Below are positions 7,790 through 62,971 of a DNA stretch of 64,000 nucleotides, in pieces (the stretch's first letter is position 1; each line of letters opens with the position of its first letter). Under the pieces are notes generated by a model. That model did not search any database and had not been told where the DNA came from. It was given only the letters and a program-made list of their open reading frames with translations. The position numbers and the translations under genes are program-made. This stretch comes from Naegleria gruberi. Its lineage: Eukaryota. The DNA is taken from the NCBI GenBank assembly GCA_000004985.1, contig GG738847.1; one strand, 5' to 3'.

Positions 7790-9155
7790 TTATTGTTTAG
7801 TAGTAGCATTTTCAAATCTTTGAACAAGTCTTTGATTTTGACCACTGTGTGGCTTCTTTTCAAGTCTCTTATCCAGCAATGACTTGGCAATTGGATGATT
7901 TTCCTTGTTTGGTGAATTGAAAATGGCATGAAGGAATAAAAGTTCAAATACATCTCTTTGAGCATTAGATCCACCAATTAAATGAGTCTTTCCAGGGAGA
8001 ATGACATCTTTGAGTAATTGAATAGTTTCATCAAATTTAGAATCATTAAAAGCATTAATTGCCTTACAAATTGGAATACCAACTTGTTGATGAACAAGAG
8101 CACAAGTATGATTAACATCATTAGATTTGGAATTTGTATAATTTTCCAATGATTGAATATGTGAATTAATAATTTCTTCATGAATTAATCTATTATTAAA
8201 TACCATTGTAATATGAGCATCATTAAAAGATAAAGCATGACTATGAATAATATTTTTCCATTGATTTCTAACCTTTTCCCATCTATTATCATTCTTTTCA
8301 ATCATACCTTCTAAATATAATCTAAATAATAAAGCAGAAGCATCAACTAAATCTAATGGAGTAATTGACTCGATGAAAATTGAAATCTTTTCATCATAAA
8401 TTTTTAAAATTTCATCCTTTTTTCCTTGATCCATTAAATATAAACAGAAATGCCACCACATATGACATGCTAATGCTTGACAATTAGCCCAATTATTTTC
8501 TTCTAATTTCATAAATTCAATTCCTTTTTGAATTTCACCTCTCATTTCATTAATATGAACAATTGCATGTAATGCCCATGCATCATCTTGATTAATTTCA
8601 ATAGCTTTAATTGCTGCTTTCATACCTTCATCATATCTATGTACTTCTTCTAATCCAAATGCTTTTTATATTAAATAAAATTAAAAATTAAATTAAAAAT
8701 ATTTAATAATATTTAATAAAATAAAAAATAAAAAATAACCCACCTAACATTCCCATAAAATAACCATATAATTCCATAGGTACATGATCATCTTGTTCAT
8801 AAATATTTAAATGTTTTTCAACACTTGAACAAATATTATTAGATTGACCAAGATAGAAATAAGCATCATGTGCAAATTTAAGTGCAATTACATCTAATGA
8901 ATCAATTTTTAATAATTCTTCCCATATTTCAGTAGCATTAATATATCTACCTTCTCTCCATGATTCTAATGCTTTAATATGAAGAATTTCAATTTCATTT
9001 TCACTTTTTAATTCTTTTAAAAATTTTAATTTTTTTAAATAATTTTCATTATCTAAAAATAGATCAGTTCTTAATAATTCACTTCCTAATTCAATCACTC
9101 TTGCCATTACATTTAATGGTTCTTCTTTTAATGTTTTTTCAAGTGTTTCTGTCAT
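7790..9155 (-). CDS. ttc38: Tetratricopeptide repeat protein 38 (TTC38) homolog. Exons lie at about 8744-9155 and 7790-8661, with an 82-nt intron (GTGGGT...AAAAAG).
   Basis: ORFs 8703..9155 and 7790..8623 join through an AT-rich intron. The conserved TTC38 signature is ALACHMWWHFCLY...DASALLFRL. Confidence 0.75.
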
Positions 9156-22266: not shown

Positions 22267-22704
22267 TAAATTAGTATGAGATGATTGTTTATTTCTAAGA
22301 ATGAAATAGAAGATAAGGAATAAATGTATTAAACAATTGAGGATGTATTGATGGGTTATTAATATAATATATTACTCATTCCTTTTCAATACTATTTAAT
22401 ACTCTTTATTGTTATCATTACAATGATATTAACAGTAGTTGCAAAAATCTTGATCATTCTAATTAAATTTTAAATTGCAAGAAATATGTATAATGTATTT
22501 CTAATTTTTAGATAAATATTACTAGCAGTAATCCTTACTAAAATTGAAATTGTAATTTTTTACTTTCTTGTTACAACAATCAACCTTTAAATATCATTTT
22601 AAATTTCCAAATATATAAATTTTAATATTTTGATAACCAATTAGATGCAATCATGCAAAACACATTTCCCGCCATTTTTTGTACAATTTATTCAAAGTAA
22701 AAAA

Positions 22705-24918
22705 ATGTCCTCCAACAATCCACGTGGATTCAATCAACAACAAAACATTAATAGGAGAGAATTATCATTCAATGTTGTTGGAGTTGGAAAACAAAACTCA
22801 AATACATCAACTAATACAACTTCAAATGGTGGTTCATCTTCTCCTACCACTAATTCTACAACAAATAATGTTGTTACTTCTACAACCAATAGTAAGCCTT
22901 CAAATACATCACCTAAATCATCAAAATCATCTTCATCATCAGCCAATAGTACAAGTAGTCAGAGACAAGCTAACAATGCACCAATTAAAAGTAGTACACC
23001 ACTCACAAAACAATCCTCTGGAACACAACTCACTACTCGAAGTGGAGTTGAAAGTTCTTCCTCTTCTGCTGCTATCAGTAAGAGATTGACTAGTGCTGCC
23101 ACAACAGTTAGTAGTACAACAAGTAACTCAATCAAATCAACAAGTTCATCCATTGCACTCTCATCTGCTTCATCTTCATCAAATCTTCTTCAAACAGTTC
23201 TAAGTAAGGAAGAAGAGGCTGAACTAATTAAAGAATTGTGTGGCGAAGAAATGTACCTATTATTAATATCAAGTAAACATCAAGAAAGAGAAGAATTTCT
23301 AACACGTTTAAATGTATGGATTAATCAATCATCTAATTTACCACATGGATTTATGATTTTTCCAAGTGTAAATTTACCAATTGAAAAGACAAGAGTATTA
23401 AAAGTACTTGCTATTATTCTAAGAATGACACTAGTTGATAAAATTATTAAAATAGTGCAATTAGCATATTCAACATGTATTTTATTAGTTGAATCAGCAC
23501 CAGTACAACAAGCAAAGAATATAACACATTTAAAAGAAGGTCTTTCACAAATATTACCATTATTGATGACTAAAGTAATTGATTCAAATGAAAGAAACTC
23601 TAAGAGTGCTATACAAGCAGTAACAAAAATGTCAACAGTTAAAGTAATTTCTAAATTAGTATTTAATTATGCATTACTATCAATTAATTCAGGTAAACCA
23701 TTATCACCTAAAGCTATTCAAGGTAGAATTTCACTTGTAGAATCACTTGTTTTAAAACATGGATTGAATAATAGTAGTTTAGAAGTTTCAATTCAATTTT
23801 TAGATTTTTTAAATGAATGTTTAACACATAAAACAGTTCAAGTTAAAGATTCATGTATTGAGTTATTAGCAATAATGCATAAATCAATGGGAAAGGAATT
23901 ATTTGATTTAAATGTAATGGATAAATTACCTTCAAAAACATCAACACTTGTACAAAAATTAGAAATTAAAATTAGAGCTAAAAAACAAGAAGAAATTGAA
24001 GAAGAAAAAAAGAAGGAAGAATTAAAAAATCAAAAAACACAAAATGAAACTAATATAGTATTTAAACAAGGTGATATATCGAGAGAATTAATAATGAAAA
24101 AATCACTTAAAAAAATTCAATCAGGTGAATCAATTCGATCATTTTTAAAATCACTAACACATTTACATTTTGATTCATGTAATATTTCTAAAATTATTAA
24201 TTTAGAACATTGTCCAAATTTAAGAGTTTTATATTTATATGATAATAGAATTACTAAAATAGAAGGATTAAATAATAACAAACAATTAATACATTTACAT
24301 TTACATCACAATTTAATTGAAAAAATTGAAGGATTGGATGAATTGGTTAATTTACAACAATTATATTTAAATAATAATAGAATTAAAATTGTTGAAAATT
24401 TAACAAAATTACAAAAACTACAAGAATTACATTTACAACAACAAGATATTGAAAATTCAATGATTTTAGATTCAGATTCAATGAAATCACTTTCAAATTC
24501 ATTAACTTTATTGGATTTAAGTAATAACAAGATTGAAGATTCACTTTCTATTGGATTTTTAGAAAATTTAATTGAATTGGATTTGAGTAAAAACAGAATT
24601 GATAAAATGGATCAAATTTTATTCATTTTAGAAAGTAATAGACAATTACACTCTTTAAATTTAATTGGAAATTCTGTATGCGATTCTTATAAAATGAGAG
24701 ATCAAATCATTGTTTCAAGTAGTTCAGATTTAACTTTATTAAATCAAGTGGAAATTACAGATATTCAGAGAGAATTTTTATTATCATTTGAACATCAAAA
24801 ATTAAAAAGAACATCAAGTGATAATAATGGAATGAATTTGGCTTTACATAATAATAGACAGACAAATAGTAATGAAAATGATCCAAACTTTTTAAAAGAT
24901 TTATTAACAATAAATTAA
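22705..24918 (+). CDS. Leucine-rich repeat protein. The N-terminus is S/T-rich, the centre is an alpha-helical HEAT/TOG-like region, and the C-terminus has SDS22-type LRRs (LxxLxLxxNxIxxIEGL).
   Basis: 757-aa ORF (the track starts at 22645 with an alternative start; the first ATG is at 22705). At least 8 LRR units lie between about 24180 and 24700. Confidence 0.6.
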   Translation: MSSNNPRGFNQQQNINRRELSFNVVGVGKQNSNTSTNTTSNGGSSSPTTNSTTNNVVTSTTNSKPSNTSPKSSKSSSSSANSTSSQRQANNAPIKSSTPLTKQSSGTQLTTRSGVESSSSSAAISKRLTSAATTVSSTTSNSIKSTSSSIALSSASSSSNLLQTVLSKEEEAELIKELCGEEMYLLLISSKHQEREEFLTRLNVWINQSSNLPHGFMIFPSVNLPIEKTRVLKVLAIILRMTLVDKIIKIVQLAYSTCILLVESAPVQQAKNITHLKEGLSQILPLLMTKVIDSNERNSKSAIQAVTKMSTVKVISKLVFNYALLSINSGKPLSPKAIQGRISLVESLVLKHGLNNSSLEVSIQFLDFLNECLTHKTVQVKDSCIELLAIMHKSMGKELFDLNVMDKLPSKTSTLVQKLEIKIRAKKQEEIEEEKKKEELKNQKTQNETNIVFKQGDISRELIMKKSLKKIQSGESIRSFLKSLTHLHFDSCNISKIINLEHCPNLRVLYLYDNRITKIEGLNNNKQLIHLHLHHNLIEKIEGLDELVNLQQLYLNNNRIKIVENLTKLQKLQELHLQQQDIENSMILDSDSMKSLSNSLTLLDLSNNKIEDSLSIGFLENLIELDLSKNRIDKMDQILFILESNRQLHSLNLIGNSVCDSYKMRDQIIVSSSSDLTLLNQVEITDIQREFLLSFEHQKLKRTSSDNNGMNLALHNNRQTNSNENDPNFLKDLLTIN

Positions 24919-31994: not shown

Positions 31995-32067
31995 GCTGGC
32001 GTAGCTCAGTCGGTAGAGCGTTGGTCTAATAAGCCATTGGTCGCCGGTTCGATCCCGTCCGTCAGCA
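31995..32067 (+). tRNA. tRNA-Ile, anticodon AAU (anticodon loop CTAATAA), 73 nt, no intron.
   Basis: Cloverleaf: acceptor GCTGGCG/CGTCAGC with one G-U pair, D-arm GCTC-AGTCGGTA-GAGC, T-arm GCCGG-TTCGATC-CCGTC, 5-nt variable loop. Confidence 0.8.
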
Positions 32068-33046: not shown

Positions 33047-33553
33047 AAGCTTAAAAATTCTCCACCAGCTAGTCTTGCTATGTATTGGAGACTTTGAAGA
33101 GGACAATTTGAAACAAGTGATAACTAAAGAAATTAGGGGACGGAATTGGAAATTTGTAGGCCATGCTGAAGATAATTTCTACATTGTTTTAAACTTTACT
33201 AGAGATTTACAAAGATTAACCTTGTCAGTATGTGTTGTGAATTACGACAATATTAAAAAGATGATCAACAAGTAGAATGCCTTTTCTTCATAAACAAATT
33301 GTTGGATATGGCTATACATTGCTTTCTTTATTTCTGTTTCGTACAGCCATCATACGTTGCACAAAGATTTCATCCCATTATTAGCTGAAATGTAATTGAG
33401 TTTGGTATTTACAGCCAGAAAGACTGGAGAGACAATTATTATTATTGAAAATCACTGCACGTCTTTTAAAGTATTCTTTCTTTGGAAATGAAAAGGAAGT
33501 AAATAGTCAACTATTTAGTGTTTTTAAATATTGAAAATCCGTTAAATATTTGC

Positions 33554-33565
33554 TTCCCGCCAAAA
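33554..33565 (-). promoter_or_regulatory. E2F-type site (reverse complement TTTTGGCGGGAA) about 50 bp upstream of the TPX2 ATG.
   Basis: Matches the TTTSSCGC E2F consensus. GC-rich motifs are rare in this AT-rich intergenic DNA. Confidence 0.35.
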
Positions 33566-33613
33566 TTTTATCATTCAATCCGTTACACAAAACAAATCAC
33601 AACTAAAAAAAAA

Positions 33614-35713
33614 ATGTCCAGTGCAACTCCATCATACACTACTGGTCCGCAACAACAACAACAACAAGAAGACTATATTTTAGAATCCACTTCAGAGGAG
33701 ATTGAGTTGATAGAAGAAGAATGGGAATTTAATGCTCCAAAATACTTTGACTTTGATAAACTCTCTAGAAAAGCCTTTACTCATCAATCTAAGCCTCCGC
33801 ATCATCATCATCAACATGAACAAGATGAAGAATTAAATCATAGTAATGCTGATCAATGGTTCTTTACTCCTGATGCTCAACATTTAGAATTTCTCGATCC
33901 AAAATATATTGATATTAATAATCAGGCTGATACTAATAATCAACAACAAATGATGATGATGAATAATTATGATAATATTGTTGATATTAGTACCATTTCA
34001 AAATATAGTGTTCATCAAGAGTCATTGGGATCATCTACTAATCAACAACAACAATACAATGCAACTACTAATTCAACTCTAGGTACAATTAATGCATTCA
34101 ATTCTATTAGAATGACACCTGTTAAGAAAGTTAAAAGGAAAGTGTTGGCTAAATTGACCATTCCTCAAACTCCAAATTTTAAAACTGAAAAGAGAATTAG
34201 ACAACGAAATAATCAATCTAGTAATCAATCTAATAATCAATCACAACAACAATCATCTATTATGAAAGGTGGTAAAATTAATTTAACAATTGTAAAATCC
34301 TCAAGACCATCCACTGATTTGAAAACCTTAAAAGTACAAGATAGAGATGATAATATTACTAAATTTAAATCTGTTACTAAAATAGCAAATACTACAACAC
34401 CTAAACCATTCAAATTCAGAACTGATAGTAGAGTATTAGATACAGATAGAAGTACAGCAATGGTAGCAGGTGGACATTCACCATTCAATAAGAGTATACT
34501 TCAAAAGATTAATGATATGAGAAATCAAATACCATCAAGATGGAAACAAACTCCAGATATGGTTACTCCACATAAACCAATGAAGATTACAAAACCAAAT
34601 TCTTTCAAATTGAGAACTAAATTTAGAAGTCGTACTAATACTACAATGATGACACAAAATGCACAATTGACTACAGCAACATTCAAGGCTAGACCACTTA
34701 ATAGAAAGATATTTGAAAGTCATGGTGAATTAGGATTATCAAAGATTATGAAGAAGGATATTACACATCCACAAGAATTTAATTTAATGACTGAAGAGAG
34801 AAGTAAGAAGAGAAAATTTGATCAATCAAAATTAGAAGAATCGACAAATATCACTACTCAACAACCTCAACAACAATCAAGCGATTTTACAAGACCATTC
34901 AAGGCTAGAAAATTAGATAATATTCTATCTGGTAGTTATATGGTACAATCATCTAAAATTATTTCAAAATCAACAACCATTCCAGAATCCCCAAAATTAT
35001 TAACAAAATCCAGAGCAGGTAATAGGTCTATTTTATTACATAATCATCACCAACACTCTGAAACTAATACTTCCAATTCTTCACAACATTCAAATGTAAC
35101 ATTTAGAGCTAGACCATTACCTACAACTCAACCATTCATTCCCAAAATTACTCATACCATAACAGTTCCACAACCATTTTCACTTGAAACAGAAAATAGA
35201 GGAACCATTCATAAGAAACAATTAGATTCTAAATTGAATGAAAAAGATGAAAAGGAAAATACATTACGAGTATTTAAAGCTAGACCAATTCATCACTATA
35301 CAAATGTAGATACATCAAAGATTTTACACAAACCAGTTACTGTACCAGTTTCACCAAATATTACAAAAGTTAAATCATCATTTAAAGATTCAATTCTTTC
35401 CTCAGCATCTGTAGCATCGTCGTGTGTAGCATCAACCATTATTGGACCAAAATTACCACACTCTTTCAAGGCAAGACCAATGCCAGATTTTAATTCATCA
35501 ACACTCAAGAGTTCTATTACTACTACAAATAATCATAGAAATGTACCAATGGAACCATTTAATCTTGCAACTGAAAAGAGAGGACAAGTTTATCAATCAA
35601 AATTCAAAGCATCTGTTCAGTCAATAGAAAGAGTTTCAATTTCTAAAATAGATGATGGTACTTTTACAAGTGTTACTAAACGAGTTTACAATTCAATTCA
35701 AAACTTACGTTAA
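33614..35713 (+). CDS. tpx2: TPX2-family microtubule-associated protein with a repeated FKARPLNRKIFE / FKARP...PF.F.TE.RG C-terminal TPX2 motif.
   Basis: Four to five FKARP/FRARP repeats, with PFSLETENRG and PFNLATEKRG typical of the TPX2 C-terminal domain. The ATG is at 33614. Confidence 0.7.
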   Translation: MSSATPSYTTGPQQQQQQEDYILESTSEEIELIEEEWEFNAPKYFDFDKLSRKAFTHQSKPPHHHHQHEQDEELNHSNADQWFFTPDAQHLEFLDPKYIDINNQADTNNQQQMMMMNNYDNIVDISTISKYSVHQESLGSSTNQQQQYNATTNSTLGTINAFNSIRMTPVKKVKRKVLAKLTIPQTPNFKTEKRIRQRNNQSSNQSNNQSQQQSSIMKGGKINLTIVKSSRPSTDLKTLKVQDRDDNITKFKSVTKIANTTTPKPFKFRTDSRVLDTDRSTAMVAGGHSPFNKSILQKINDMRNQIPSRWKQTPDMVTPHKPMKITKPNSFKLRTKFRSRTNTTMMTQNAQLTTATFKARPLNRKIFESHGELGLSKIMKKDITHPQEFNLMTEERSKKRKFDQSKLEESTNITTQQPQQQSSDFTRPFKARKLDNILSGSYMVQSSKIISKSTTIPESPKLLTKSRAGNRSILLHNHHQHSETNTSNSSQHSNVTFRARPLPTTQPFIPKITHTITVPQPFSLETENRGTIHKKQLDSKLNEKDEKENTLRVFKARPIHHYTNVDTSKILHKPVTVPVSPNITKVKSSFKDSILSSASVASSCVASTIIGPKLPHSFKARPMPDFNSSTLKSSITTTNNHRNVPMEPFNLATEKRGQVYQSKFKASVQSIERVSISKIDDGTFTSVTKRVYNSIQNLR

Positions 35714-35845
35714 AATATTACAAAGATAATAACATGTATTTGGAACAGATTTTGTGTAAAATTCTGTTAACAATTATATGATAAAGATTATTAAAATATT
35801 ATTTAATTATTACTAATATTATTTATTATTGTTTAAAGTAACCAA

Positions 35846-36874
35846 TCAATCAAAACGATAACGATTTACTAGTTTCATTTGATTAATATTTAAAGCACCC
35901 TGAGTTCCAATATTATTCAAGCTAATATCAAGATTTGTTAATTGTTTCATTTCACTAACGAAAAAGGATCCCAAAGCTTGTAAATCATTTCTACTAATAT
36001 CAAGATTTGTTAACTGTTTCAATGCTAAAAGATACATAGCACCAAAAGTAATTCTATTTTTGGCAATATTAAGAATTTTTAACTGAGACAATTTACCAAT
36101 ACATTTAGCACCGTTATCTTTAATTCGATTATTTTCAATATTAAGATTTGTTAATTGTTTCAATTCACTAATATGTTCAGCTCCATCACTACCAATGTTA
36201 TTTTCACAAATATTTAATATTGTTAAATGTGGTAATTTACTAATATAGTAAGCACCTTCAGATCCAATAAAATTAGAACTAATATTAAGATTAGTTAATT
36301 GAATCATTTTACTTATACTTTCAGCACCACTAACACGAATATTGTTTTTGTAAACTCCTAAATATTGCAATTCTTTCAATTGATTAATATAATCCAATGC
36401 TTTCTCGTCAAATTTCAAATTAGAATATAAAGAAATATGTTTTAACTTTTGTAAACGAGTTAAATATTTGGCACTTTCTAAATTAATTCTATTATAATCT
36501 ATTTTAAGTAGTGTTAATTGTTTCATATTATCACAAATAAATTGTAAATTATTAATATCAATATCATTACAACGACTATTATTATTTACTATTAAAGTAG
36601 TAATATTCTGTGATAATTGCTGAGGTAGTGATTGCTGAGTTTTCTTTAAACTAAAACATGTAAATGAAAAATTTCTTATTCTTTCCATAATAATATTAAA
36701 CCATTGTTTTGAGACTAATAAACCTGTTTTCATTAAAAAGTGAAAATCACTATGAAAAGATAAAATTTCATAAACAATATCATTGTACAACTGAACTTCT
36801 TGCTTCTTATTTACTCTAGATGGAACCAACTTCTTGTTCTTTTCATTATTAAGAATAGTATACTTATTATTCAT
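35846..36874 (-). CDS. F-box-like / RNI-type leucine-rich repeat protein with repeated LTNLNIxxNxIGxxGA units.
   Basis: 348-aa ORF. The true ATG is at about 36872-36874. About 8 RNI-like LRRs. Confidence 0.6.
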   Translation of the reverse strand: MNNKYTILNNEKNKKLVPSRVNKKQEVQLYNDIVYEILSFHSDFHFLMKTGLLVSKQWFNIIMERIRNFSFTCFSLKKTQQSLPQQLSQNITTLIVNNNSRCNDIDINNLQFICDNMKQLTLLKIDYNRINLESAKYLTRLQKLKHISLYSNLKFDEKALDYINQLKELQYLGVYKNNIRVSGAESISKMIQLTNLNISSNFIGSEGAYYISKLPHLTILNICENNIGSDGAEHISELKQLTNLNIENNRIKDNGAKCIGKLSQLKILNIAKNRITFGAMYLLALKQLTNLDISRNDLQALGSFFVSEMKQLTNLDISLNNIGTQGALNINQMKLVNRYRFD

Positions 36875-37082
36875 GTTTATTAAGCTGTTCAATAACTTGT
36901 TCGGCTGTTAGAGTTTCACCTTTTTTTTAATAATAAATTTATTTTTAAAAAAGTTAGAAATATTTTAATGGATGCAATTTTGTTTGGAGGTTTGTTAAAA
37001 AGAGCAGCAGCAACATCCATGGATGGAAAATTGTATTAATTATTATATAAATTTATAATAGTATTTTTAAATATTTTACAAT

Positions 37083-38573
37083 TTAATCTAATAAATCTTG
37101 AACAGTTTCTAAAATGAAAGGTGAATCATGTTTTAAATCCATTCTCTTGGTTGGAATTTTAAATGGTAAATTTAATTTACAATATTTATCTAAATTTTCA
37201 TTATTTACTTCCTTTTCTTGTGAATTATTTTCTAAATTATTTTCTGAATTAAAATTATTTAATTTAAAAATAACTCCAAGTTCATAATTTGAAATATATA
37301 ATTGTGTTCCATTTTTTTGTAATTTACCCAAAGCAGGTTGACTCAAATTGTGACTTCCAACAAAAATATAACCATTTTTTAAATTTTCCAAATGTAGTAA
37401 TATTTTAGAGTGTGCTAAATGATTTGCCTGATTTGGTGAGTAGTGTGTCATTAAATGTTTTGGAAATGTTGAAGTTTCAAATGTTTTACTTTTTAAATGT
37501 ATCATTCCACCACATCTAAGTCCAAAATGACTTGAAGATACACTTTCCAAACTAGGAAATACTATATTAAAATTATTACAATCTTTTAAATAAAAACTTG
37601 AACTTAATTCTTTAATCCAATCTAAATTCATTGATCCAATACTTGACATTTGATAATATAATGGTGATTGTTTTAAATTTAATATTTCATTTTTAGTAAA
37701 ATTCATTCTTTCAATTGCTTTTTTAATTGCTAAATGTCCATATTTATCTTTTTCTATATTTGTATGATATCCAGGAATTGAAGGTATTAATTCACCTTTA
37801 GCATTTGAATAATCATATTTTCTCAAAAAATTACCTGGAATACCATCTGTTAATTTTGTCCAAAATTCAACAAGTGTATTTTCAAATTGATTTGTATTAT
37901 TATTAGATATATTTTCCTTTTTAGGAAAGTCTTGTATCCAAATACATTGTTTAAAAAAGCTCCAATCAAAGTCAGTTAAATTAGCAGATGAAACAACAAT
38001 TCTAATAAAATCATCAAATTCGATAATAAATAATTTAGCATGCATATTAGAATAAGCACCTAATAAAGAAGGATGACAAACACAAACAGGACATGATCCT
38101 ATTTTTAGAAATTCCTTTCCTTTTTTTTCTTCTTTTTGATTCCAATGTTTTGAAATAGTAATTGGTAATTCAAATTTAGTAAATGGAATGATTGTTTTTA
38201 AAAAATCAAAATCTAAACAATAACTTGATAAAAATAAACTTTTAGCCTTTTCAATATTTAATATTTCTTTTAGAGTAATTAAATTTCTAGAATTATTAGA
38301 ATCATTAACTAGTTTGTTAAAATAAATTTCATTTCCATTATATTTTAATGATTTACTTGATGATGAATTATTTGAAATATTGTTACTATTTGATGTGGTA
38401 TTGGTTGATTGTTTGGTTGATGATTTGGATGAAGATGTAATAGAAGAGGAATTTGATTGTTGTTGTTTTTTATCGGATGATGGTTTTGATTTTTTATAGG
38501 ATACTAATTGAATTGCTTCATCATCACTACTTTCTTCATCACTACTGATAATGTAGACTGCTGATCTTTTCAT
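37083..38573 (-). CDS. tdp1: Tyrosyl-DNA phosphodiesterase 1 (TDP1), PLD superfamily, with two HKN motifs (HAKLFIIEF...SSANLT and HSKILLHL...GSHNLSQPALG).
   Basis: Both catalytic HxK(x)n N motifs are present at the expected spacing. 496 aa, single exon. Confidence 0.85.
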   Translation of the reverse strand: MKRSAVYIISSDEESSDDEAIQLVSYKKSKPSSDKKQQQSNSSSITSSSKSSTKQSTNTTSNSNNISNNSSSSKSLKYNGNEIYFNKLVNDSNNSRNLITLKEILNIEKAKSLFLSSYCLDFDFLKTIIPFTKFELPITISKHWNQKEEKKGKEFLKIGSCPVCVCHPSLLGAYSNMHAKLFIIEFDDFIRIVVSSANLTDFDWSFFKQCIWIQDFPKKENISNNNTNQFENTLVEFWTKLTDGIPGNFLRKYDYSNAKGELIPSIPGYHTNIEKDKYGHLAIKKAIERMNFTKNEILNLKQSPLYYQMSSIGSMNLDWIKELSSSFYLKDCNNFNIVFPSLESVSSSHFGLRCGGMIHLKSKTFETSTFPKHLMTHYSPNQANHLAHSKILLHLENLKNGYIFVGSHNLSQPALGKLQKNGTQLYISNYELGVIFKLNNFNSENNLENNSQEKEVNNENLDKYCKLNLPFKIPTKRMDLKHDSPFILETVQDLLD

Positions 38574-38586
38574 ATTTTTTAATTTA

Positions 38587-38596
38587 TTGGCGCCAA
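38587..38596. promoter_or_regulatory. Palindromic E2F-type site TTGGCGCCAA in the TDP1 promoter, which is the SMC1 3' intergenic region.
   Basis: TTTGGCGC consensus on both strands. Confidence 0.35.
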
Positions 38597-38679
38597 ACTT
38601 TTTTGAAGTTCGAGTAAAATTTCGAATTGACTTGCATAATAAAAATTTTTAAGTTTTTGAATAGTAATTTTACAAATAA

Positions 38680-41600
38680 TTATTCTTCTACTTCTGGTTC
38701 ATCTTGTTGTTCATCATATTGAGACAAATCTATTGTTAAAGTCTTTGAGGACTTGGTACTAATATCTCTCATAATACCAACCAAAGACTTGGCATCAGTG
38801 TAAAAGTTTTCTTTCAATGAAATGATAATAAATTGACACTTCAAATCAGTTAGACCATTCACAGAACGTTTGATATAATTGGCAACCTTATTAACGTTAA
38901 CATTGTCGAGAGCAGCATCAACTTCATCAAGAATGTAGAATGGAGATGGATTATATTTGTGAACAGAGAAAAGTAAAGCAAGAGCAGCAACAGTCTTTTC
39001 ACCACCACTCAATTGTGCCATATCTCTGTAACGTTTAAGAGGTGGCATGGCATTAAACTTAATTCCGTGCAAGTATGGCTCATCAGTATCTTCCAATAAC
39101 AAATAGGCTGTACCACCAGGTGTCTTGTCAGATTTTGTCAAGTCTTTGTAAATACTATCAATGGATTGAGAAATTCTATCATAAGCTTTCATGAAGGCTT
39201 CCTTTCTCTTCTTCTTGACTTCTTCAAAATCTTTCTTAATCTTAGTTGTATCTTGTCTAGTTTGCTTATATTCTTCGAGGGTATCTTTGTATTTCTTAGA
39301 AATGGCATCATATTTACCAACAATGGCTGTAGTTGGAGCTAATCTTTCAATTTCTTCTTGAAGTTCAAGCAATTTGTTTTCAAAGTCCTTTTCAATGGCT
39401 TCATATTCCTTGATATCTTTGAGATTTCTCTTTTCCTTTTCAATGCTAGAGAAATCGAGAGTGACAAATTCTTGAGAGAGGGATGATGTTTCTTCTTGTG
39501 TTTGAGAAATTGGGAAAGACTCACTGAATCTGAGTTCTCCTTGAACTTCTTCTCCTTCTGAGTATTTTCTCTTCTTTTTAGATTTACCTGCAGATTTACT
39601 TTGCTTTCTCTTCTTTCCGTCTTCTTCTTCGGATTCTTCTTCAGATTCCTCTTCAGACTCTTGAGTTGAACTTAGTTTACCCTTGATGGATGGCAATTCA
39701 ATTTCTTCTAATTTACATTTCATGAACATTTCTTGTCTCCTATTTCTGAGTTGTTCAATTTGATTTTCCTTAGCTGTGATTTGTTTAGCCAACTTGATGA
39801 GTTCATCATAAACAGATTGTAAAATCTTCTTCAATTCATTCATTTCAGTTGTCTTGTCATCTACTGAAGATTGTGACGATTTCATTTCTTCAAGTGCTTT
39901 CTTAAAGTCTTTCTCGATAGAAATTAATTCAGTTTCAAGTTTCTTGCACTTATCCTTCTTTTCACTCAAGGTCTTTTCTTCCTTTTCAACATCCTTTTCT
40001 AATCTATCGAGTGATGTTGTAATATCTCTCTTCTTGATCAATTCTAGTTGATTGGTAAGTCTTGAAATCATAGTTTCGAATCTAGATCTTTCCTTATCAG
40101 CATGTTCTTCAGCCTTCTTCTTCTTATTTTCATAATCTCTAATATTCTTAACACCAAGCTTCTTAGATAAATCAGCAAAGATACCTTCTTCAATTTCAGC
40201 AATTTCACCTTCAATCTTTTCAATTCTGCTATCAAGTGATGAAATCTTAGTGCTTAAAGTGTTAATTGTTGGTTCTTCGGCCTTGATTTCCTTTTCAATA
40301 TCTCTCAATTCAGAATCAACATCAGCAATCTTCTTCTTTGTAAAGTCGACATCAGTTCTGACAACAAGTTTACCTTCAAGTTGTTTGATTTCAATTTCAA
40401 GTCTTGACAAAGTAGCACTATCAGAGGCTTCTTCTCTTGTAAGATTTTGAACATCTGAAACAAGCTTATCTCTGTCATTCTTAAGCTTTTCAATATCACT
40501 TTCCTTAAATCTGGAAGTTCTTGTTCTGACATCAGCCAAACCACCTGTAACCATACCTGATTTGCTAATAACAGTACCATCAACGGTAACACCTTTAACT
40601 TTGAAACCTAAACCTGCATCATCATCAAAACAAATTGATGTTGCTTCATCATATGTATCACAAACGATAGTGTTGCCAAGAGCATACTTAAATATCTTAT
40701 CAACCTTATCTTCATATGTGATAACATCAGTAACAAGTTTAGCACTAGAGTTTGGAATCTTTCTCAACTTTTCATTGACCTTCTTAGCTTTGACAGAATC
40801 AATTGGAATGAAAGTACAACTTCCAAGTCTTTGTTCTTTCAAATACTTGATACATTCTAAAGCTGTCTTTTCAGTTTCACAAACAATCGAATTCAAATGT
40901 TTACCAAGTGCAACATTAACAGCAACATTGTACTTTTCACGGGTGATTGTGAATAAATCACCAACTTTACCTAGAACACCTGGGAATAAACGTTTCATAC
41001 CTTCGAGTGCTTCCTTGAATCTTAATTCTCTTTCACTGTCTCTCTTTTCAACTCTAGCTTCTTTCAACTTATCTCTAATTTGATGTAATTCGTCTTCGGA
41101 TTTTTGCTTTTTTCTAGCCTTTTCAGTAGTTGACTTGGTGAGTTCATCCTTCTTTCTATTCTTCTCATCTAATTCAGTTTCTAAAGCTTGCAAAGATTCT
41201 TCCAACTTTTCAAGTCTCTTTTGGTTGGTCTTCTTTTGATCATCAAGTTGCTTTTTTCTTTCTTCGAATTGTTCAACTTTTTGAAGTACAGTTTTTTGAG
41301 ATTCAAAGAGAGTATTCTTTTCACCAGTGAGTGTTGAAAGTTCTTGTCTCAAACTCACAGTTTCTTCACTAGCTTGAACTTTACGTTTGTTATATTCCTC
41401 AAGATCAGCACCAGAAATTTTAATTTCTTCGGAACTTTCTTCTTTTAACTTGGCTTCCATTTCATCTCTTTCTTGTTCTAGCTGCTTAATTTCATCTTCC
41501 AATTTTTCAACATCTTTAGTATGTTTGTCTAATTGATTCTTCTTTTTATCCATTGACTTGGAACGATTTTTAAGACTATTCTCCAAATGGTTAATTTCAA

Positions 41601-42576
41601 CTTTCAATGATGCCAAAGATTCTCTCTTCTTTGTGACATCATCCTTTTGTCCTTTAACTTTGCTTGTAGCCAACAGGTTTTGTTTTTTCAATTTAGCCAT
41701 TTCCTTTTTCTTTTCATTGATTTCTTCGTTGGTTGTGTCTTGCTTTGATGATAAGTGACTCTTTTCCTTGTTGAGACGGGTCAATTCAGATTTATATTTA
41801 CGAATATCCTTTTCAATATGATACAATTTCCACAAAACAAAGTTTGCTTGGAGTTCTGTATGTTCAGCTGTTGCATCATCAAATCTGTCAGCATCTTTCT
41901 TTTGATTTTTAAATTGAGTCTTTTCTGTACTAATACCCTTCTTCTTTTGGAAATTTGTAATCAACTTGTTATTTGATTGTTCATATTCTTCTTTTAGGCG
42001 ATCATATTCTTTCTTATATTCTTCAGATCCAGAAATTTGTTCAAATAATTTAGTTAATTCTTGTGGTGATTTAGAAGCAACATTTTCTACATCACCTTGA
42101 AAAACTAAAAAGTTTCTAGCCTTTGTTAAAATACCAAAGCTCTTCAATTTCTTTTCATAGTCTGCTGCTTGCACAACCTTCTTATTAATTTTATATTCTG
42201 TTTGACCTTGTGATGAAATAGTTCTTGTGAATTCTACTTCGGCTCCTTCCTCTTCTTCATCCTCTGGAGAAGTTTTAAAAACCAATTTAACATAGGCTGT
42301 TCTATTTTGTTGTGTAGCAAGACCGTCACCATTGAAAATCAATTGTTTTAAATGTGAAGAACGCAAATATGTTGCTCTGAGACCCATAACGAAACTGATG
42401 GCATCCATCAAGTTACTTTTACCACTACCATTTGGACCAATCACACAAGTAAAGTCATCAAAAGGACCAATGATTTGTCTTCCTTTGTATGATTTAAAGT
42501 TTTCTGCTTCAATTCTTACGATTTTGCCGTGATTAGTTGAATCGTTAGATTGTGATTGACTTGTTGTTTGGCTCAT
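38680..42576 (-). CDS. smc1: Structural maintenance of chromosomes protein SMC1 (cohesin ATPase), 1298 aa, single exon.
   Basis: N-terminus IEAENFKSYKGRQIIGPFDDFTCVIGPNGSGKSNLMDAISFVMG (SMC1 Walker A). C-terminus LSGGEKTVAALALLFSVH...ILDEVDAALD (signature motif and Walker B). Long coiled coils and a hinge between them. Confidence 0.9.
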   Translation of the reverse strand: MSQTTSQSQSNDSTNHGKIVRIEAENFKSYKGRQIIGPFDDFTCVIGPNGSGKSNLMDAISFVMGLRATYLRSSHLKQLIFNGDGLATQQNRTAYVKLVFKTSPEDEEEEGAEVEFTRTISSQGQTEYKINKKVVQAADYEKKLKSFGILTKARNFLVFQGDVENVASKSPQELTKLFEQISGSEEYKKEYDRLKEEYEQSNNKLITNFQKKKGISTEKTQFKNQKKDADRFDDATAEHTELQANFVLWKLYHIEKDIRKYKSELTRLNKEKSHLSSKQDTTNEEINEKKKEMAKLKKQNLLATSKVKGQKDDVTKKRESLASLKVEINHLENSLKNRSKSMDKKKNQLDKHTKDVEKLEDEIKQLEQERDEMEAKLKEESSEEIKISGADLEEYNKRKVQASEETVSLRQELSTLTGEKNTLFESQKTVLQKVEQFEERKKQLDDQKKTNQKRLEKLEESLQALETELDEKNRKKDELTKSTTEKARKKQKSEDELHQIRDKLKEARVEKRDSERELRFKEALEGMKRLFPGVLGKVGDLFTITREKYNVAVNVALGKHLNSIVCETEKTALECIKYLKEQRLGSCTFIPIDSVKAKKVNEKLRKIPNSSAKLVTDVITYEDKVDKIFKYALGNTIVCDTYDEATSICFDDDAGLGFKVKGVTVDGTVISKSGMVTGGLADVRTRTSRFKESDIEKLKNDRDKLVSDVQNLTREEASDSATLSRLEIEIKQLEGKLVVRTDVDFTKKKIADVDSELRDIEKEIKAEEPTINTLSTKISSLDSRIEKIEGEIAEIEEGIFADLSKKLGVKNIRDYENKKKKAEEHADKERSRFETMISRLTNQLELIKKRDITTSLDRLEKDVEKEEKTLSEKKDKCKKLETELISIEKDFKKALEEMKSSQSSVDDKTTEMNELKKILQSVYDELIKLAKQITAKENQIEQLRNRRQEMFMKCKLEEIELPSIKGKLSSTQESEEESEEESEEEDGKKRKQSKSAGKSKKKRKYSEGEEVQGELRFSESFPISQTQEETSSLSQEFVTLDFSSIEKEKRNLKDIKEYEAIEKDFENKLLELQEEIERLAPTTAIVGKYDAISKKYKDTLEEYKQTRQDTTKIKKDFEEVKKKRKEAFMKAYDRISQSIDSIYKDLTKSDKTPGGTAYLLLEDTDEPYLHGIKFNAMPPLKRYRDMAQLSGGEKTVAALALLFSVHKYNPSPFYILDEVDAALDNVNVNKVANYIKRSVNGLTDLKCQFIIISLKENFYTDAKSLVGIMRDISTKSSKTLTIDLSQYDEQQDEPEVEE

Positions 42577-42743
42577 TGTTTAATAAATAAATTAATTGTT
42601 GTTTGTTCGTCGATCTAGTAATGTTAATTATTTAGGCTGGTGATGATGTTAAAGCCTTTTGATGAAATCGACTAATTCTTAGGGTGATACACTTTATCAG
42701 TGATCGTTTTTGAATATTTTTTTTTGTGATTATTTTTCTTCTT

Positions 42744-42773
42744 GGCGCGAAATGCTGTGAATTTGGCGGGAAA
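42744..42773. promoter_or_regulatory. Tandem E2F-type sites (GGCGCGAAA and TTTGGCGGGAAA) in the divergent SMC1/Sfi1-like promoter. A third site, cTTGGCGC, is at 42908-42915.
   Basis: Canonical TTTSSCGC motifs. They lie between two divergently transcribed genes involved in chromosome segregation. Confidence 0.4.
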
Positions 42774-42949
42774 CTTTTCTATTATTTAAAAGAATTTTTA
42801 AATCTTAGAAATCATTTTGTTACTGTGAAGATATCCTTAAGTATTAGATAGAACAAGTTTATCAGTATTAGAATATTAATTCTGTTGTTGTATTTTATCA
42901 CACTAAACTTGGCGCTCTTCAAAATACAATTTAAATTTAGCCTTAAAAA

Positions 42950-45900
42950 ATGCTCAAACAACCAACAACAAAACCATTGGCTATTGTTGGGGTCAATAAT
43001 AATCAACAACAGAGAAGAGTTACACAGAGTAATTTACCTCAACGACAAGCTGTCTCTTCATCATCACGACCATCGACATCATCCCGAACACCACAACCAC
43101 CAACAAATTCAACTAGGAAAACCACATCAAACAATAATCATCAGACAAACAATAATAGACTTCGACAACAATCAGCACACAACGTTCATACAACATCTAA
43201 AAATTCTAAAATACCTGATAATAGAAGTTCTTCTAATGAACCTCTTATTAGATATCACAATTTGGATGATGAGGAACCGGAAACTTTGGATGAAGAGGAA
43301 GAAGATATTCAAACAGTATCTGTGATCCCTTCTTTTGGAAGAAATATATTTCATCAACAACGAGTTAATATCAATGGCGATTCAGTAATGAAAATTAGAT
43401 CACCAATAATACAAACCCCTGTAAATATTCCATCAACAGAACAAAAAGTAGTAATCAAACCACCAACAAAGTTGACTGATTCAATAAGTGCCCTCACTAA
43501 ACAATATAGAAAACTGGGCGATTTCCCATTTCAACCAACAATACAACCTGAAAAACAAGAAAGCTTTTCGGATGAGTGGTCAAGGAAAAAACAAGCTGCA
43601 TTAGAAAGGAGAAAAAACAAATCGAGGAATGAATATCTTGCAAGAAAAGTAGTTGATCATTGGAAATGGTTTGCAAGAAAAGGATTGGATGAAATTAAGG
43701 CCAAAAATAAGAGGAATATCGTTTTAATATTCAAAACATTTCAACATTGGAAAAGAAGAAAAGAGGAAAGAGATAATTTATGGAAAAAAGAATTTATTGT
43801 ACAAACAAGACAAAAGTTCACTTTGATGCAAACCTATTTCAATCAATGGTTGACTCAATTGGAAATATCGAGAGAAAGAGAAGAACTCTACACAGATAGA
43901 GCTTACAGTTTTTTGAAACGAAAATTGGAACACAAAGTGTTGAAATCTCTTAAATTATTTGTTCTGCAAAGAAAAGAAAGAAGAGAAATTATTGATATAG
44001 CTGATACTTTTGCAAATAGAAGAATCATTAAGGGCTCACTAAGAAAAATTAAGGAAGGTTAGTATATTTCAATTACAATAATAAGGACTAACATATGATA
44101 GTTAAAATAATGCAGGATAAGGACACAGCAGCTGATCATTTCTGGCAACATCAACTATTCATTAAAACAATAAGAAGTATTAAAATGTATATAGGAGAAG
44201 AAAATTACAACAAGGAATGTTTGGCACTGGAGTTTTTCAATAATAATCTGAAATCAAAATCACTGAAATCACTTGCCCTGTACTATAGAGCCAAAGAGCT
44301 CAAAAGAAAAACAATTGAACAGAATAATATGAAAGCTGATAATTTCTTCAAAGATCGTCACATTCAAGAATACTTTAAAGCTTTGCAAGATTTTTGGCAA
44401 AGTAGAAAACAAAAACAAATCAGAGAGCAAACCTCATTTACTTATTACAGAAATACTAATGTCAAGAATTTCTTTGGATATTGGAAAATGTGCAGTTCAA
44501 ATTCAATCCATTTCAAGGAGTTGGAGGTATGTTGATTATTAAGGAAATTGATTCAAATAACTTATTGCTTAGTCAATCATCCAAAAGAAGGAAAGAAAGG
44601 CTCTTTTAAAAGAGTTTTTTTCTCAATGGAAAGAAAAATTAAATGGGAAAAATCTCATGCTCAATATGGAATATGAAGCTAAACGATTTTATGACCACAG
44701 TATCAAATGCAGAGCCTTTATAAGTTTGAAAACTGTAAGTTGAACACCATGATATTTCTAATATCGATTAGTATAATAATTTTAGGCAAGAAAAAGAAGA
44801 ATCAAAAAACAAATCAATTAGTTTTAATTCGTTTTCAGTTGTGTATAAGGCATTCAGACATTGGAAGGTAAGTTGTTTGAAGAAGTTATTACTGATGAAA
44901 TAATTAGACAAAATTTGAATTAGAGAGAGATAAAACATCAGAAAAGAATAGGATTGTTGATAATTTGATTAGAACCAAAAACAAGCAACTTATACTGAAA
45001 GTAATAGCCAATCTAAAGTCTCATAAAAATAAGAAAAAGGCCAAACAAAATGAAGAAGATAAGAGAGTTATGGAACTACGAAAGATATTACAAAGAAAAA
45101 AGATGGAAAGAATTCTTAAATCATGGAAAGATTATCAAAATTACAGAACACAAAGAAGAGTTGATTATGAAAGAGCAGTTATGCACTATCAAAGAATTCA
45201 AAGAGAGAAATCAATGAAACAACTCTACGCATACATGTTATACAAGAGAAGGAAATATTGCCTCTATGAAAAAGCTGAAAAATTCACAATGAATCACTCA
45301 ATCAAGAACATATTTCAGTATTGGTTTGGAATAGTGGATGACAGATTGAATACTAAATGTAAAATCAAGAAGGCTGAGTTTACTTTCTCTAAACATTTAG
45401 CCAAGAAAACCCTTCGTTCCTTTAAGAATTATGTTTATTACAAAAGAGCCAAATCCAAGTTAGAAATTGAAGCTATGGAAAATAGAAAAGCACTCCTAAT
45501 GAGAAGAGGCATGATACAGTTAATGGAAAGTTCCTTTGAGGAAAAAACAAAACGAATGAACATGATTGAAAGGTTAAATCTTAAAAGTACTGCTGAAGAT
45601 CTGAAGAAAATTGAAAAATTTGCTAGGCATTGGCTTTATATTACAATAAGAAATGCTCACAAGAGAGGATCTGGTCTTTTTAGTGGATACAGAAGTTTGA
45701 CCATTCAAAACACCAAAGAAGAGGAACCATCCTCAAACAAATTTGATAGAGAACCTACAAGTCAACTAAAATATCCAAAAAGAAGAGCTTCTCCAAGAAG
45801 ACCATCAGATGTTGATCGTCTAAAGTTTAATGATTCAAATTCTGTTACAATGGCCCCACCATCAAGAGTCAAGTTTGAAAGTTTTCCTTCTCCTAGTGAG

Positions 45901-46332
45901 ACTAGTAGTATTTCAAGTGAATTGCTAGAACAAGAGGAATTAGTCAGTAGAATTGAGAGAATTGAAAATCTCTCCTCTGTTGTAGAAGAAACAAATAACA
46001 ATATAACTGAAGAACCAGTTTATACGAATGATACAAGCACTACTGAAGAACAAGAGGCTATCCTTCTTCAGGTTGATAAAATCAAATCCATTCTTGAAGA
46101 ATTTGATAATAATTGGACACCAGTATACGAATTTGAGAAGGAAAGAAGAAAAGCCTTGAAGGAACTCTTAGATCTCGAAGAAGATGTTTCCATCATGCAA
46201 GAGTATGCAACTGAATTGTCGCACCTAGAGAAGAGAGCAAAAACCTATTTGAAATTTAAGCGGGAAGAACTTCCAAAGCTTTTGAGTCAATTACATGATT
46301 GTCTACATTCTGTGTTGCCGCTTTCTGAATAA
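42950..46332 (+). CDS. sfi1: Sfi1-like centrin-binding repeat protein (repeated ...F/LxxW[KR] units: HWKWFARKG, FQHWKRRKEE, YFNQWLTQL, FRHWK, FQYWFGI, ARHWLYI). It has multiple exons with introns at about 44058-44101 and 44527-44572, and two more between about 44735 and 44912.
   Basis: ORFs 42950..44062, 44095..44535 and 44965..46332 link through GTTAGT/GTATGT/GTAAGT...AG introns. The repeat periodicity resembles Sfi1. The family assignment is moderately confident. Confidence 0.55.
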
Positions 46333-46353
46333 AAAAAAATAGCCTTAATCATC

Positions 46354-48952
46354 ATGCTCAATCAACCACTCAACCCACAAGATTCATTTTTGAGTCGATC
46401 AACCTCGGGTAAAATTATGAGAACGCCAAGTCGATCAAAGAGAACATCAACAACTCCTCTTTCTTCATCAACTAGTACTCCAAGGAGAGGAAATCAAGAG
46501 GCTAAAGGTGCTACATCATCCACAGCTGTTAATATTGTTGCTATTTTGGACAACCCGGCAAGAGATGTAGGCTTTGCTGTTTTCAATATGAGAACGAATT
46601 CAATCTTCCTCACTCAGTACAATGAAGGATCAAGCTACATCAACACTTGTAATATGTTGAAAGTGTATGAACCATCCGAAGTACTTTTTCCTAAATCTTT
46701 GTTTGATTCGAAACTAGCCTCTATCGTCAAGCAAGAATTAGAATCTAATGCTGATAATCAAAATAGTGCTGCAAAGGCTAAGGTAACCTTCATTGCTAGA
46801 AAACTCTTCAATGAGAATAAGGGAGTTGAAATAATAGACACCCTAATGATGGATGATAATGCTTCTATCAAATCCGATACAATTGCCAAATATTTGAGTG
46901 TTAGTTCCCTCTCTGCTGTTGTTCAATATGTTGAATTCATTCAAGAGTTAACATTTCAACCAAGAAGTCTCCGAATTAATTATGTTGCTTGTGATGGACA
47001 TTTAATGCTTGACTCTGCCAGTATTTCTTCCCTTGAAATTGTTAGAAGCCTCAAATATGGAAACTCTCATTGTACACTACTCTCACATATTGATAATACT
47101 AAGACACCAATGGGAAAGAGAATCATTAGATCAAATATTCTTCAACCATTGCTTGATGTTAATTCTCTCAATGCCAGATTAGACAGCACTGAGGAGATAT
47201 TGTCCAAGGAGAAAGAGTTTTTCGAAATTGGAGCTCTCCTTGCAGAGTTTAGTTCCATTGATCTGAGTCATCTATTAACTCAATTCACTCACACCAGAAA
47301 GAATGCGAGAGGTTCTTGCCACACTCTTGTACTCAATATTATTAGCTTGAGGAAGATGTTGAGTAAACTCCCCAAACTAGAAAGTTGCATGAGAGAGTAT
47401 AATACTCCAATCCTCCAAGCAATTTGTAGTGCTCTCAAATTCCCTGAAAATGAATCTCTTCAAGAAGAAATGGACGAGATAATCAATGAGAAAAGCATTC
47501 TTAGTTGTAAAAACAAACAGCAACAAATTATCTTTGCAGTAGCTCCTGAAATTGATGCTCTGTTGGATATTGGAAGAAAGAAATACATTGAGACTGTTGA
47601 AGAAATCCACGAACATCACAAGCATTGCCAATCAGAGGCAGGAATTTCCTCTCTCAAGTTAAAATACAATGTAAGAAGAGGATATCATTTTAGCATTGAA
47701 GGTAATTATACATTTCTAAATTGATTCTTAACATTTCAAAGATAAAAATGGAGAGTCACACAAAATGTTCATTCAAAAGTCAAAGAAAGGAAAACAAACT
47801 CACTGCTCCACCCAAGAATTGAACTCCCTTAATGTTAGATTGAAGGAAATTATTGATGAAATCTACCTAATGACAGATTTGGTTGTGAATAGACTTGTAG
47901 AATCCATTAGAAATCATTTGAGTCAACTTTACAAGCTGAGTGAGTCCATTGGATTATTAGATATGCTTTATAGCTTTGCCACCTTAGTTACTCTATCCAA
48001 CAATTACGTGAGACCAGAGTTTTGTAGCGAGGGACCAATAGCCATCAAACAAGGAAGACATCCTGTCATGGAGAAGCAACTTCAAGGCCAATATGTTCCT
48101 AATGATACCTTTATGGCCGAATCATGCAACTTTCAAATAATAACTGGAGCCAACATGAGCGGCAAGAGCACATATCTTAAACAAATAGCCACTATTCAGA
48201 TACTAGCTCAAATTGGAAGCTTTGTTCCATGTGCTTTTTGCAATTTAAGAATTTGTGATAGAGTATTCACCAGAATTGGTAATAATGATAGTATTGAGAG
48301 CAATAGCAGTACATTCATGGTAGAAATGGTATGTTACCAATTGTTTTAAACTTTTAAATCTTATCTATCATTTAGAAAGAGGTAACCAATATTGTTCAAA
48401 ATGCAACAAACAAAAGTCTAATAATTATTGACGAACTAGGAAGAAGTTCAAGTAATATTGAGGGAACTTCAATTGCTTGGAGTATTGCAGAACATTTGAG
48501 TGTAAGTTTTACAAATTCAGCTTCATTCTTAGTTATTAAATTAGTCAATCAGAGCCTATTCTCTCTTTGCAACACATTACACAGAATTGAGTGATTTGGA
48601 GAGCTTGTATCCAAATATTAAAAATTCACATCTCAGAGTAACAACCACACAAGACGGTGAATTAAACTACTTGTATCAAATCCAACCTGGTAACTGTAGT
48701 GAAGACAGATATGGTATTAAGCTTGCAAAAATGCTTGGTCTCTCTTCCAAGATTATCACTGAAAGTGAGCATATTCTCGATGAATTACTCCAGCAAAAGC
48801 AAAAACCTCAAAGAAATACTGAGGATATTAAGCAAAGAAAAATAGTATTTAGTATTGCATCTAAATTAATTGCCCATTCTGATGCAGGAATTGACAGTTT
48901 CAAAGAAATAGTACAGAAATTACAATCAACTATAAATGTTCAACAAAATTAG
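46354..48952 (+). CDS. msh4: MutS homolog 4 (MSH4), meiosis-specific and lacking the mismatch-binding domain I. Four exons lie at about 46354-47701, 47742-48328, 48376-48501 and 48545-48952.
   Basis: TPMGKRIIRSNILQPL (MutS domain III), ANMSGKSTYLKQIATIQILAQIGSFVP...NSSTFMVEM (Walker A region, very close to MSH4), FATHYTEL...LYPNIKNSHL. Canonical introns. Confidence 0.8.
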
Positions 48953-59911: not shown

Positions 59912-60209
59912 CTTTGTTGGTTATTGTTTTGTTGTGTTTTTATTTGTTTGTGAGAATTTTGTGTGAGGCTTCTTTGGAAAACTCTAGGCCACAACAAAGC
60001 AGCTAGTTGCGTTGTTTGCGAGATGACTTGTTTGCTTTACTTATTTTGACGTAAGGAATGGAAAATAAAGGGTTAACAAACGAACTTTGAGCCGCTTAAA
60101 CGTCTTTATATTCAAGCGCCCTTTGGACGATGTTTCCAAATATGAATTTTGTAAATTTTTGGGACTGACGGCAAACAACAGACATTGACGAAAACCAACG
60201 AAGGAGGAC

Positions 60210-62711: not shown

Positions 62712-62971
62712 TTTTTTAATTTAAATGTAACGGAAAACTATCTGGCCAGCAAACAGGAGAAGCCTATTATTTTCTACTCAAAACTAGATATCAACAAACT
62801 TTCCAACAAAAACATTAGACAAGTTTAAATAATAATAATTAATTGACAGTAACTAAATAATTCGTCGAAAACGAATAATAATAATTTTTTATTATTCAGA
62901 GCGACAACAATAAAGCAATAAAATTCCCTGAAGCTGAATTCAAACTCGTGATTTTTAATCTATTAAAATGA

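Follow-up and report, generated by a model that had tools for sequence, protein, structure and literature searches.

Within a 64-kb stretch of the Naegleria gruberi genome (GenBank assembly GCA_000004985.1, contig GG738847.1; hereafter the window), a small number of promoters carry GC-rich words of the E2F type (consensus TTTSSCGC), and we consider it likely that these words are binding sites of the Naegleria E2F family on a subset of chromosome-cycle promoters; actual binding, the direction of regulation and its timing are what we infer from sequence. The reading is best supported for the promoter between the cohesin subunit gene SMC1 and its divergent neighbour, called the 42950 gene here after its start position, and next for the promoter of the TPX2 homologue. 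The promoters of the tyrosyl-DNA phosphodiesterase gene TDP1 and of a CEP104-like TOG/leucine-rich repeat (LRR) gene are plausible E2F targets as well, in N. gruberi only. E2F-type motifs upstream of TPX2, TDP1 and SMC1 had already been pointed out in a first-pass annotation of the window; direct reading and a pattern search find all of them within one or two bases of where they had been placed, close to gene starts.

The SMC1/42950-gene promoter measures 373 nucleotides (nt), from the SMC1 start codon at 42576 (minus strand) to the start of the plus-strand gene at 42950, and it contains three sites. Two of these are full 8/8 matches to TTTSSCGC: CTTGGCGCGAAA at 42741-42752 (minus; TTTCGCGCCAAG when read on the minus strand) and TTTGGCGGGAAA at 42762-42773 (plus; TTTCCCGC on the minus strand). 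The third, CTTGGCGC at 42908-42915 (plus), is a weaker E2F-like site with a 7/8 match, located 35-42 nt upstream of the ATG at 42950, all distances being counted to the start codon. The TPX2 site at 33553-33565 (minus), which reads CTTCCCGCCAAAA on the plus and TTTTGGCGGGAAG on the minus strand, lies 49-61 nt upstream of the ATG at 33614 and is a 7/8 match with an extended palindrome. Upstream of TDP1, the palindromic site TTGGCGCCAAA (TTTGGCGCCAA on the minus strand) at 38587-38597 is only 14-24 nt away from the ATG at 38573 (minus), and at the same time 83 nt beyond the SMC1 stop codon. One further strict site, TTTCCCGCCA at 22665-22674 (plus), falls outside the range covered by the first-pass annotation, 31-40 nt upstream of the likely ATG of the CEP104-like gene at 22705; it would occupy codons 7-10 if the in-frame ATG at 22645 were used instead. 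The pattern search for exact 8/8 matches returned positions 38590, 42745, 42766 and 22665, and all strong sites are found 14-205 nt upstream of start codons.

Words of this kind are strongly over-represented in the window when compared with 100 dinucleotide-preserving shuffles of the same 64 kb. TTGGCGS occurs 7 times (0.71 expected), TTSSCGS 15 times (2.95 expected) and the strict TTTSSCGC 4 times (0.54 expected), and for each of the three patterns not a single shuffle reached the observed count. When one mismatch to TTTSSCGC is allowed, the excess is gone (36 observed, 28.6 expected), so that the information resides only in exact or near-exact sites. GC-rich words are rare here, as the first-pass annotation had said: runs of at least six G/C number 12 in the window, 7 of them in its 14.3 kb of intergenic DNA, and five of these seven are E2F-type sites (including 22668), while one belongs to a tRNA-Ile gene. 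An unbiased scan of the intergenic DNA ranked TCCCGCC, TGGCGGG, TTGGCGC and TTCCCGC as the top non-repetitive 7-mers.

The sites are also concentrated upstream of genes. In a pooled set of 195 kb, consisting of the window and ten comparison loci (L001 to L010), TTSSCGS reaches a density of 0.98 per kb in the 250 nt preceding genes, five times the value within genes (0.19 per kb), and other intergenic DNA has 0.06 per kb; 17 of the 48 pooled sites fall within the 8.9% of the sequence made up by these upstream regions (binomial 3.6e-7). The window has 28 genes with an upstream region; a site precedes five of them, each of which falls into a class of chromosome, spindle, centrosome or repair functions (Fisher 5.7e-4; the classes were assigned post hoc). 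No upstream E2F site was found for the LRR gene located between TPX2 and TDP1, for the urocanase, mitochondrial carrier, PIKfyve-like and BAR genes, or for other genes.

The SMC1 promoter was compared in five genomes: N. gruberi, N. lovaniensis (L001), Willaertia magna (L002), Acrasis kona (L009) and a metagenomic relative (L010). All five carry an E2F-type site, in flanking sequence that by eye is seemingly not alignable. N. lovaniensis has GGCGCCAAAA at L001 9790-9800, W. magna has two words, CCCGCCAAT at L002 9917 and GCGCCAAAT at 9940, A. kona has TTCCCGCTAAA at L009 1304, and the metagenomic relative has CGCGCCAAATTT at L010 1997. Based on the site density of each locus, the joint chance of finding sites in these four additional genomes is 2.4e-5. 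For TPX2 the set comprised four genomes, namely N. gruberi, N. lovaniensis (L003), N. fowleri (L004) and a metagenomic relative (L005); these upstream regions were compared by eye and by pattern, and a MAFFT alignment misplaced the short elements. The TPX2 site is recognizable in three of the four, at the same distance in N. fowleri (TTGGCGCC, L004 5930) and in the metagenomic relative (CCCGCCAAAAA, L005 2299), and is degenerate in the fourth.

These data bear directly on the explanation that the motifs are chance matches in an AT-rich genome. The near-random count of one-mismatch words and the existence of chance matches in coding sequence speak for it; against it stand the shuffles, none of which reached the observed counts, the concentration of sites upstream of genes, and their recurrence in orthologous promoters of five genomes. 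As an account of the whole set we regard chance as extremely improbable, and for the SMC1 and TPX2 sites it is refuted; the TDP1 site on its own, and the weak one at 42908, may be chance matches.

We next considered the genomic arrangement, as the genes had originally been described as an adjacent cluster. If a co-regulated chromosomal domain were at work, it would be the clustering itself, rather than the individual sites, that coordinates expression. Five to six neighbouring genes are indeed chromosome-related, and the order MutS gene, 42950 gene, SMC1, TDP1 is retained in N. lovaniensis, where SMC1 is likewise head-to-head with a 42950-type gene; in W. magna, the model of the divergent SMC1 neighbour is a fusion of a portion without Pfam family and a MutS portion, consistent with the same head-to-head arrangement. 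However, some 570 kb separate TPX2 from SMC1 in N. lovaniensis, and N. fowleri has TPX2 in another neighbourhood; the gene nonetheless keeps an E2F-like element, so that the element travels with the gene and not with the cluster. In W. magna TDP1 is replaced by PSME4, and in N. gruberi the cluster is interrupted by the LRR gene, which was omitted from the original description and has no site, while the MutS gene has no site either. Across genomes, adjacency is limited to SMC1, its divergent partner gene and the MutS gene. A domain effect thus appears very unlikely to us; the cluster does not hold up as a unit, and the genes are neighbours through ordinary synteny, which is partly conserved, rather than as parts of a regulatory unit. 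The region between SMC1 and the 42950 gene looks like a conserved bidirectional promoter.

The MutS gene itself had been included in the proposed coordinated control by Rb/E2F. Two 7/8 matches, at 46260 and 46314, were evaluated as possible promoter sites for it and rejected, since both fall within upstream coding sequence. Of the two, 46260 was compared with N. lovaniensis and is not conserved there. The MutS gene is therefore not supported as an E2F target. The proposal as a whole is partly supported: the E2F, DP, DEL and RB factors are all encoded and the sites track SMC1 and TPX2 across species.

Medina et al. 2016 (PMC4862756) list sequences of N. gruberi E2F, DP, DEL (E2F7/8-like) and RB in their supplement. 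NgruE2F aligns to the DNA-binding domain of human E2F4 (1CF7, 2.8e-25), and the 24 residues of the recognition helix, of the RRXYD type, are identical; the same DNA specificity is thus to be expected. NgruE2F additionally aligns to the E2F4/5 coiled-coil/marked-box domain and to the E2F8 structure 4YO2, while NgruDEL contains two E2F-type DNA-binding domains.

The unchanged recognition helix also argues against the view that the GC-rich words are sites of an unrelated factor, for example a CpG-binding or zinc-finger protein, or a core-promoter element, and that their likeness to E2F sites is coincidental. A few promoters do carry other GC-rich words, such as GCGCCC at 60116 (at a gene for an RWP-RK transcription factor) and GCGCC at 22141, which is in favour of this view. 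The sites discussed here, in contrast, fit the E2F consensus including its T-run/A-run flanks, several of them forming the extended palindrome TTTSGCGCSAAA, and they are confined to a functionally coherent minority of promoters, whereas a general core element would be expected in most. We judge such a coincidence to be improbable.

A different question is which member of the E2F family would occupy the sites. Atypical E2Fs prefer sites of the TTCCCGCCAAAA type, and the TPX2 site (33554-33565) is of exactly this type; a literature sequence search with the E2F8 site gave no match. One could thus imagine that the sites are bound only by an atypical, DP-independent E2F of the DEL/E2F7-8 type acting purely as a repressor, with no periodic activation through RB, E2F and DP, and the two DNA-binding domains of NgruDEL as well as the alignment of NgruE2F to 4YO2 are in line with this. 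On the other hand, the remaining sites, TTTCGCGC and TTTGGCGC, are classical E2F-DP sites, and E2F, DP and RB are all encoded. Typical E2F-DP binds the same core, so that the sequence by itself cannot tell E2F-DP from DEL, nor activation from repression; an exclusively atypical, repressive system nonetheless seems unlikely to us.

We thus favour binding of the sites by E2F-DP, which would be restrained by the RB pocket protein, possibly with DEL as an additional occupant. If the system works as it does in animals, plants and Dictyostelium, the promoters would be held off by RB-bound E2F outside the proliferative window and activated by free E2F-DP ahead of S/M phase. The likeness to the E2F/DP-RB targets of these three groups extends to the motif with its extended palindrome, to the promoter-proximal position and to the type of target, and the full set of E2F, DP, DEL and RB is likewise encoded in N. 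gruberi. In Dictyostelium, SMC1 is among the genes repressed by RblA (PMC3386910; the main text of that study contains no promoter-motif analysis). Dictyostelium was also the organism from which the window had initially been thought to originate; the host is N. gruberi, a member of the Heterolobosea, and the checks that had been proposed, an rblA mutant and Dictyostelium RNA-seq, are accordingly not applicable.

Published expression data probably cover one of the candidate targets. Kennard et al. describe a "Naegleria TPX2 homolog" as mitosis-specific, based on RNA-seq of heat-shock-synchronised N. gruberi (bioRxiv 10.1101/2024.01.08.573270). We found no second TPX2_importin paralogue in N. 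gruberi, and the mitosis-specific TPX2 is therefore probably the gene of the window.

The TPX2 promoter contains a second kind of element, which resembles the plant MSA element and the sites of Myb-type factors. In N. gruberi one copy, CCGTTAAA at 33539-33546 (plus), occupies the upstream flank of the E2F site, and another, CCGTTACACA at 33580-33589 (plus; TGTGTAACGG on the other strand), is located 25-34 nt upstream of the ATG. CCGTTA or CGTTACA elements, whose core reads AACGG on the other strand, flank the TPX2 E2F site in all four genomes; CCGTTA or CGTTA is found at the position equivalent to 33539-33546 in N. lovaniensis, N. fowleri and the metagenomic relative, and the elements lie at 5917 and 5948 in L003 and at 5918 and 5946 in L004. 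Within the window, CCGTTACA (in gene orientation) occurs also at 62726-62733 (minus), 15-22 nt upstream of the ATG of PARG at 62711. In the SMC1 promoter of the metagenomic relative, a heterolobosean-like contig (L010 1975-2006), CCGTTAC is found 16 nt upstream of the E2F site, a pairing as in the TPX2 promoters.

Three B-type cyclin loci, fetched after the hypothesis of a mitotic element had been formed, contain the same kind of word: N. lovaniensis cyclin B1 (L006), W. magna cyclin B1 (L007) and a second B-like cyclin of N. lovaniensis (L008). Upstream of the first are GCGTTACA, TAACGG and CCGTTTCACA (L006 4040-4110), upstream of the W. magna gene CCGTTACACA together with CAACGG (L007 4873-4900), and upstream of the third CCGTTACACAAAAA (L008 4695-4704), the TPX2 word CCGTTACACA recurring at L008 4695. 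A sense CGTTACA within at most about 310 nt upstream is common to all three genes, with a chance probability of about 3e-6. The bare 6-mer CCGTTA shows no excess in the window (5 occurrences, 4.3 expected), and the sample is small, comprising the promoters of four TPX2 genes, three cyclin genes and PARG. The Myb-type element probably marks mitotic genes, and we put forward CCGTTACA(CA), with core AACGG, as a candidate mitotic promoter element in Heterolobosea.

That CCGTTA(CA) flanks the E2F site of TPX2 and occurs at B-type cyclin genes that have no such site suggests a two-element logic, in which E2F alone would serve cohesin-type genes, and E2F plus a Myb-type factor, or the Myb-type factor alone, would serve mitotic genes. 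Naegleria would then run a programme in which cohesin and S-phase-type genes carry E2F sites and mitotic genes a Myb-type element with AACGG, both kinds meeting at TPX2. We offer this as a tentative proposal that could well turn out to be wrong, and the Myb-type nature of the protein recognizing CCGTTACA is a suggestion from the word itself.

Several observations weigh against the E2F reading of the sites. None of the three B-type cyclin promoters contains an E2F site, and mitotic expression is thus not explained by E2F alone. The TPX2 site of N. lovaniensis (L003) has degenerated to TAGCGCCAC, and the TDP1 promoter of the same species has no E2F site. A perfect-looking E2F word, TTTGGCGGGAAG, occurs by chance inside a methyltransferase-like open reading frame (ORF) of W. 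magna. Moreover, the comparison loci were picked via SMC1, TPX2 and cyclin B, so that the pooled figures cannot be read as an unbiased measure for the whole genome.

Compared with the E2F/DP-RB systems described above, Naegleria differs first of all in its lineage, Heterolobosea within Discoba. Its promoters are extremely short, with the sites at the distances from the ATG given above, and two of them are shared or overlapping, namely the bidirectional promoter of the SMC1 pair and the TDP1 site just beyond the SMC1 stop codon. The second element invites comparison with two other systems. The plant MSA consensus is YCYAACGGYYA, and the extended Naegleria word CCGTTACA(CA), which is TGTGTAACGG, differs from it. 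What the two have in common is that AACGG stands in G2/M promoters (those of B-type cyclins and TPX2), in one or two copies near the gene start, with an E2F site alongside in one promoter. In plants the MSA element, with core AACGG, is bound by R1R2R3-Myb proteins (MYB3R), and DREAM-type complexes join MYB3R, E2F and RBR (PMC5608833). The late promoters of animals that are controlled by DREAM/MuvB through CDE/CHR elements also pair an E2F-like site with a nearby second element in mitotic promoters; the second element is of Myb type (AACGG) in Naegleria, however, whereas the animal CHR is TTYGAA.

Our paper searches turned up no description of E2F cis-elements in Heterolobosea or of Myb/MSA ones in Naegleria, and nothing that connects MYB3R or MuvB with Naegleria. 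Elements of this kind are textbook knowledge, the lineage is new, and the Myb-type companion is a testable lead. A canonical E2F word on cohesin and spindle promoters amounts to cis-regulatory evidence from Discoba, beyond the well-studied animals, plants and amoebozoans, and suggests that the binding specificity of E2F and part of its target set are as old as the proteins themselves. For the Naegleria field, which has RNA-seq from mitotic synchrony in hand, the E2F word and the candidate CCGTTACA are elements that can be put to the test; together they might account for the sharp restriction of spindle-gene transcription to mitosis in an organism without interphase microtubules.

The gene assignments made in the first-pass annotation stand for the most part. 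TPX2 (33614-35713, plus strand) is a single-exon gene of 699 amino acids (Pfam TPX2_importin, 3.3e-22) and identical to N. gruberi XP_002682286.1, whose 941,567-bp scaffold also carries the GenBank SMC1 model; it is followed by the LRR gene at 35846-36892 (minus). TDP1 (37083-38573, minus) encodes 496 amino acids (Pfam Tyr-DNA_phospho, 1.8e-65). SMC1 (38680-42576, minus) is a continuous ORF of 1298 amino acids with the Pfam domains SMC_N and SMC_hinge, and its best matches are named SMC1. The GenBank model of N. gruberi SMC1 (1214 amino acids, partial) has an in-frame acidic/basic segment spliced out and is missing the first 16 codons, but otherwise matches the ORF of the window; the orthologues of N. 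lovaniensis (1301 amino acids) and W. magna (1287 amino acids) are continuous like the latter.

Of the other two assignments, one is unconfirmed and one is confirmed only in part. The 42950 gene (42950-46332, plus), with three ORF segments at 42950-44062, 44095-44535 and 44965-46332, encodes a protein of about 1000 amino acids with lysine/arginine-rich helical repeats, and had been called Sfi1-like. It matches no Pfam family and no PDB entry at E up to 10. Of its 13 tryptophans, 9-10 are found in a context of the [F/L/H]-x-x-W-[K/R/Q] type, which is reminiscent of Sfi1 repeats, so that the designation is possible but unconfirmed. The last gene (46354-48952, plus) is a MutS homologue with domains II-V and without domain I in Pfam, i.e. 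of the MSH4/MSH5 class. Its PDB matches are limited to MSH2, MSH3, MSH6 and MutS and do not separate MSH4 from MSH5; the call is supported at the level of the MutS family.

Two groups of matches were set aside during the survey. The seventh TTGGCGS match in the window, CCGCCAAT at 63244, was discounted as a promoter site, as GT...AG boundaries suggest that it belongs to an intron of a small minus-strand gene. At L002 2236-2299 in W. magna, a stretch of 65 nt holds CCGCCAAT, CCGTTAAA and TTTGGCGGGAAG together, but the group is located inside the continuous methyltransferase-like ORF mentioned above and is a chance coding match.

Additional E2F-type words were seen in the comparison loci. In N. 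lovaniensis, TTTGGCGGGA at L006 7131-7140 lies in the promoter that a CDC20/Fizzy-type WD40 gene shares with a divergent Ras gene, next to cyclin B1, and may be a further E2F target. In W. magna, E2F-type words are found at L007 1537-1544, 48 nt upstream of an unannotated gene of 350 amino acids, and at 8709-8717, 200 nt upstream of an F-box/WD40 gene. Within the window, the GCGCCC word at 60116-60121, about 205 nt upstream of the RWP-RK gene, is an intergenic G/C run that does not fit the E2F consensus, and the tRNA-Ile gene (anticodon AAT) that accounts for another such run is located at 31995-32067, upstream of the TPX2 region. Finally, the segment 9001-10000 of the window has a GC content of 0.16 and a GC skew of -0.54, with short overlapping ORFs on both strands.

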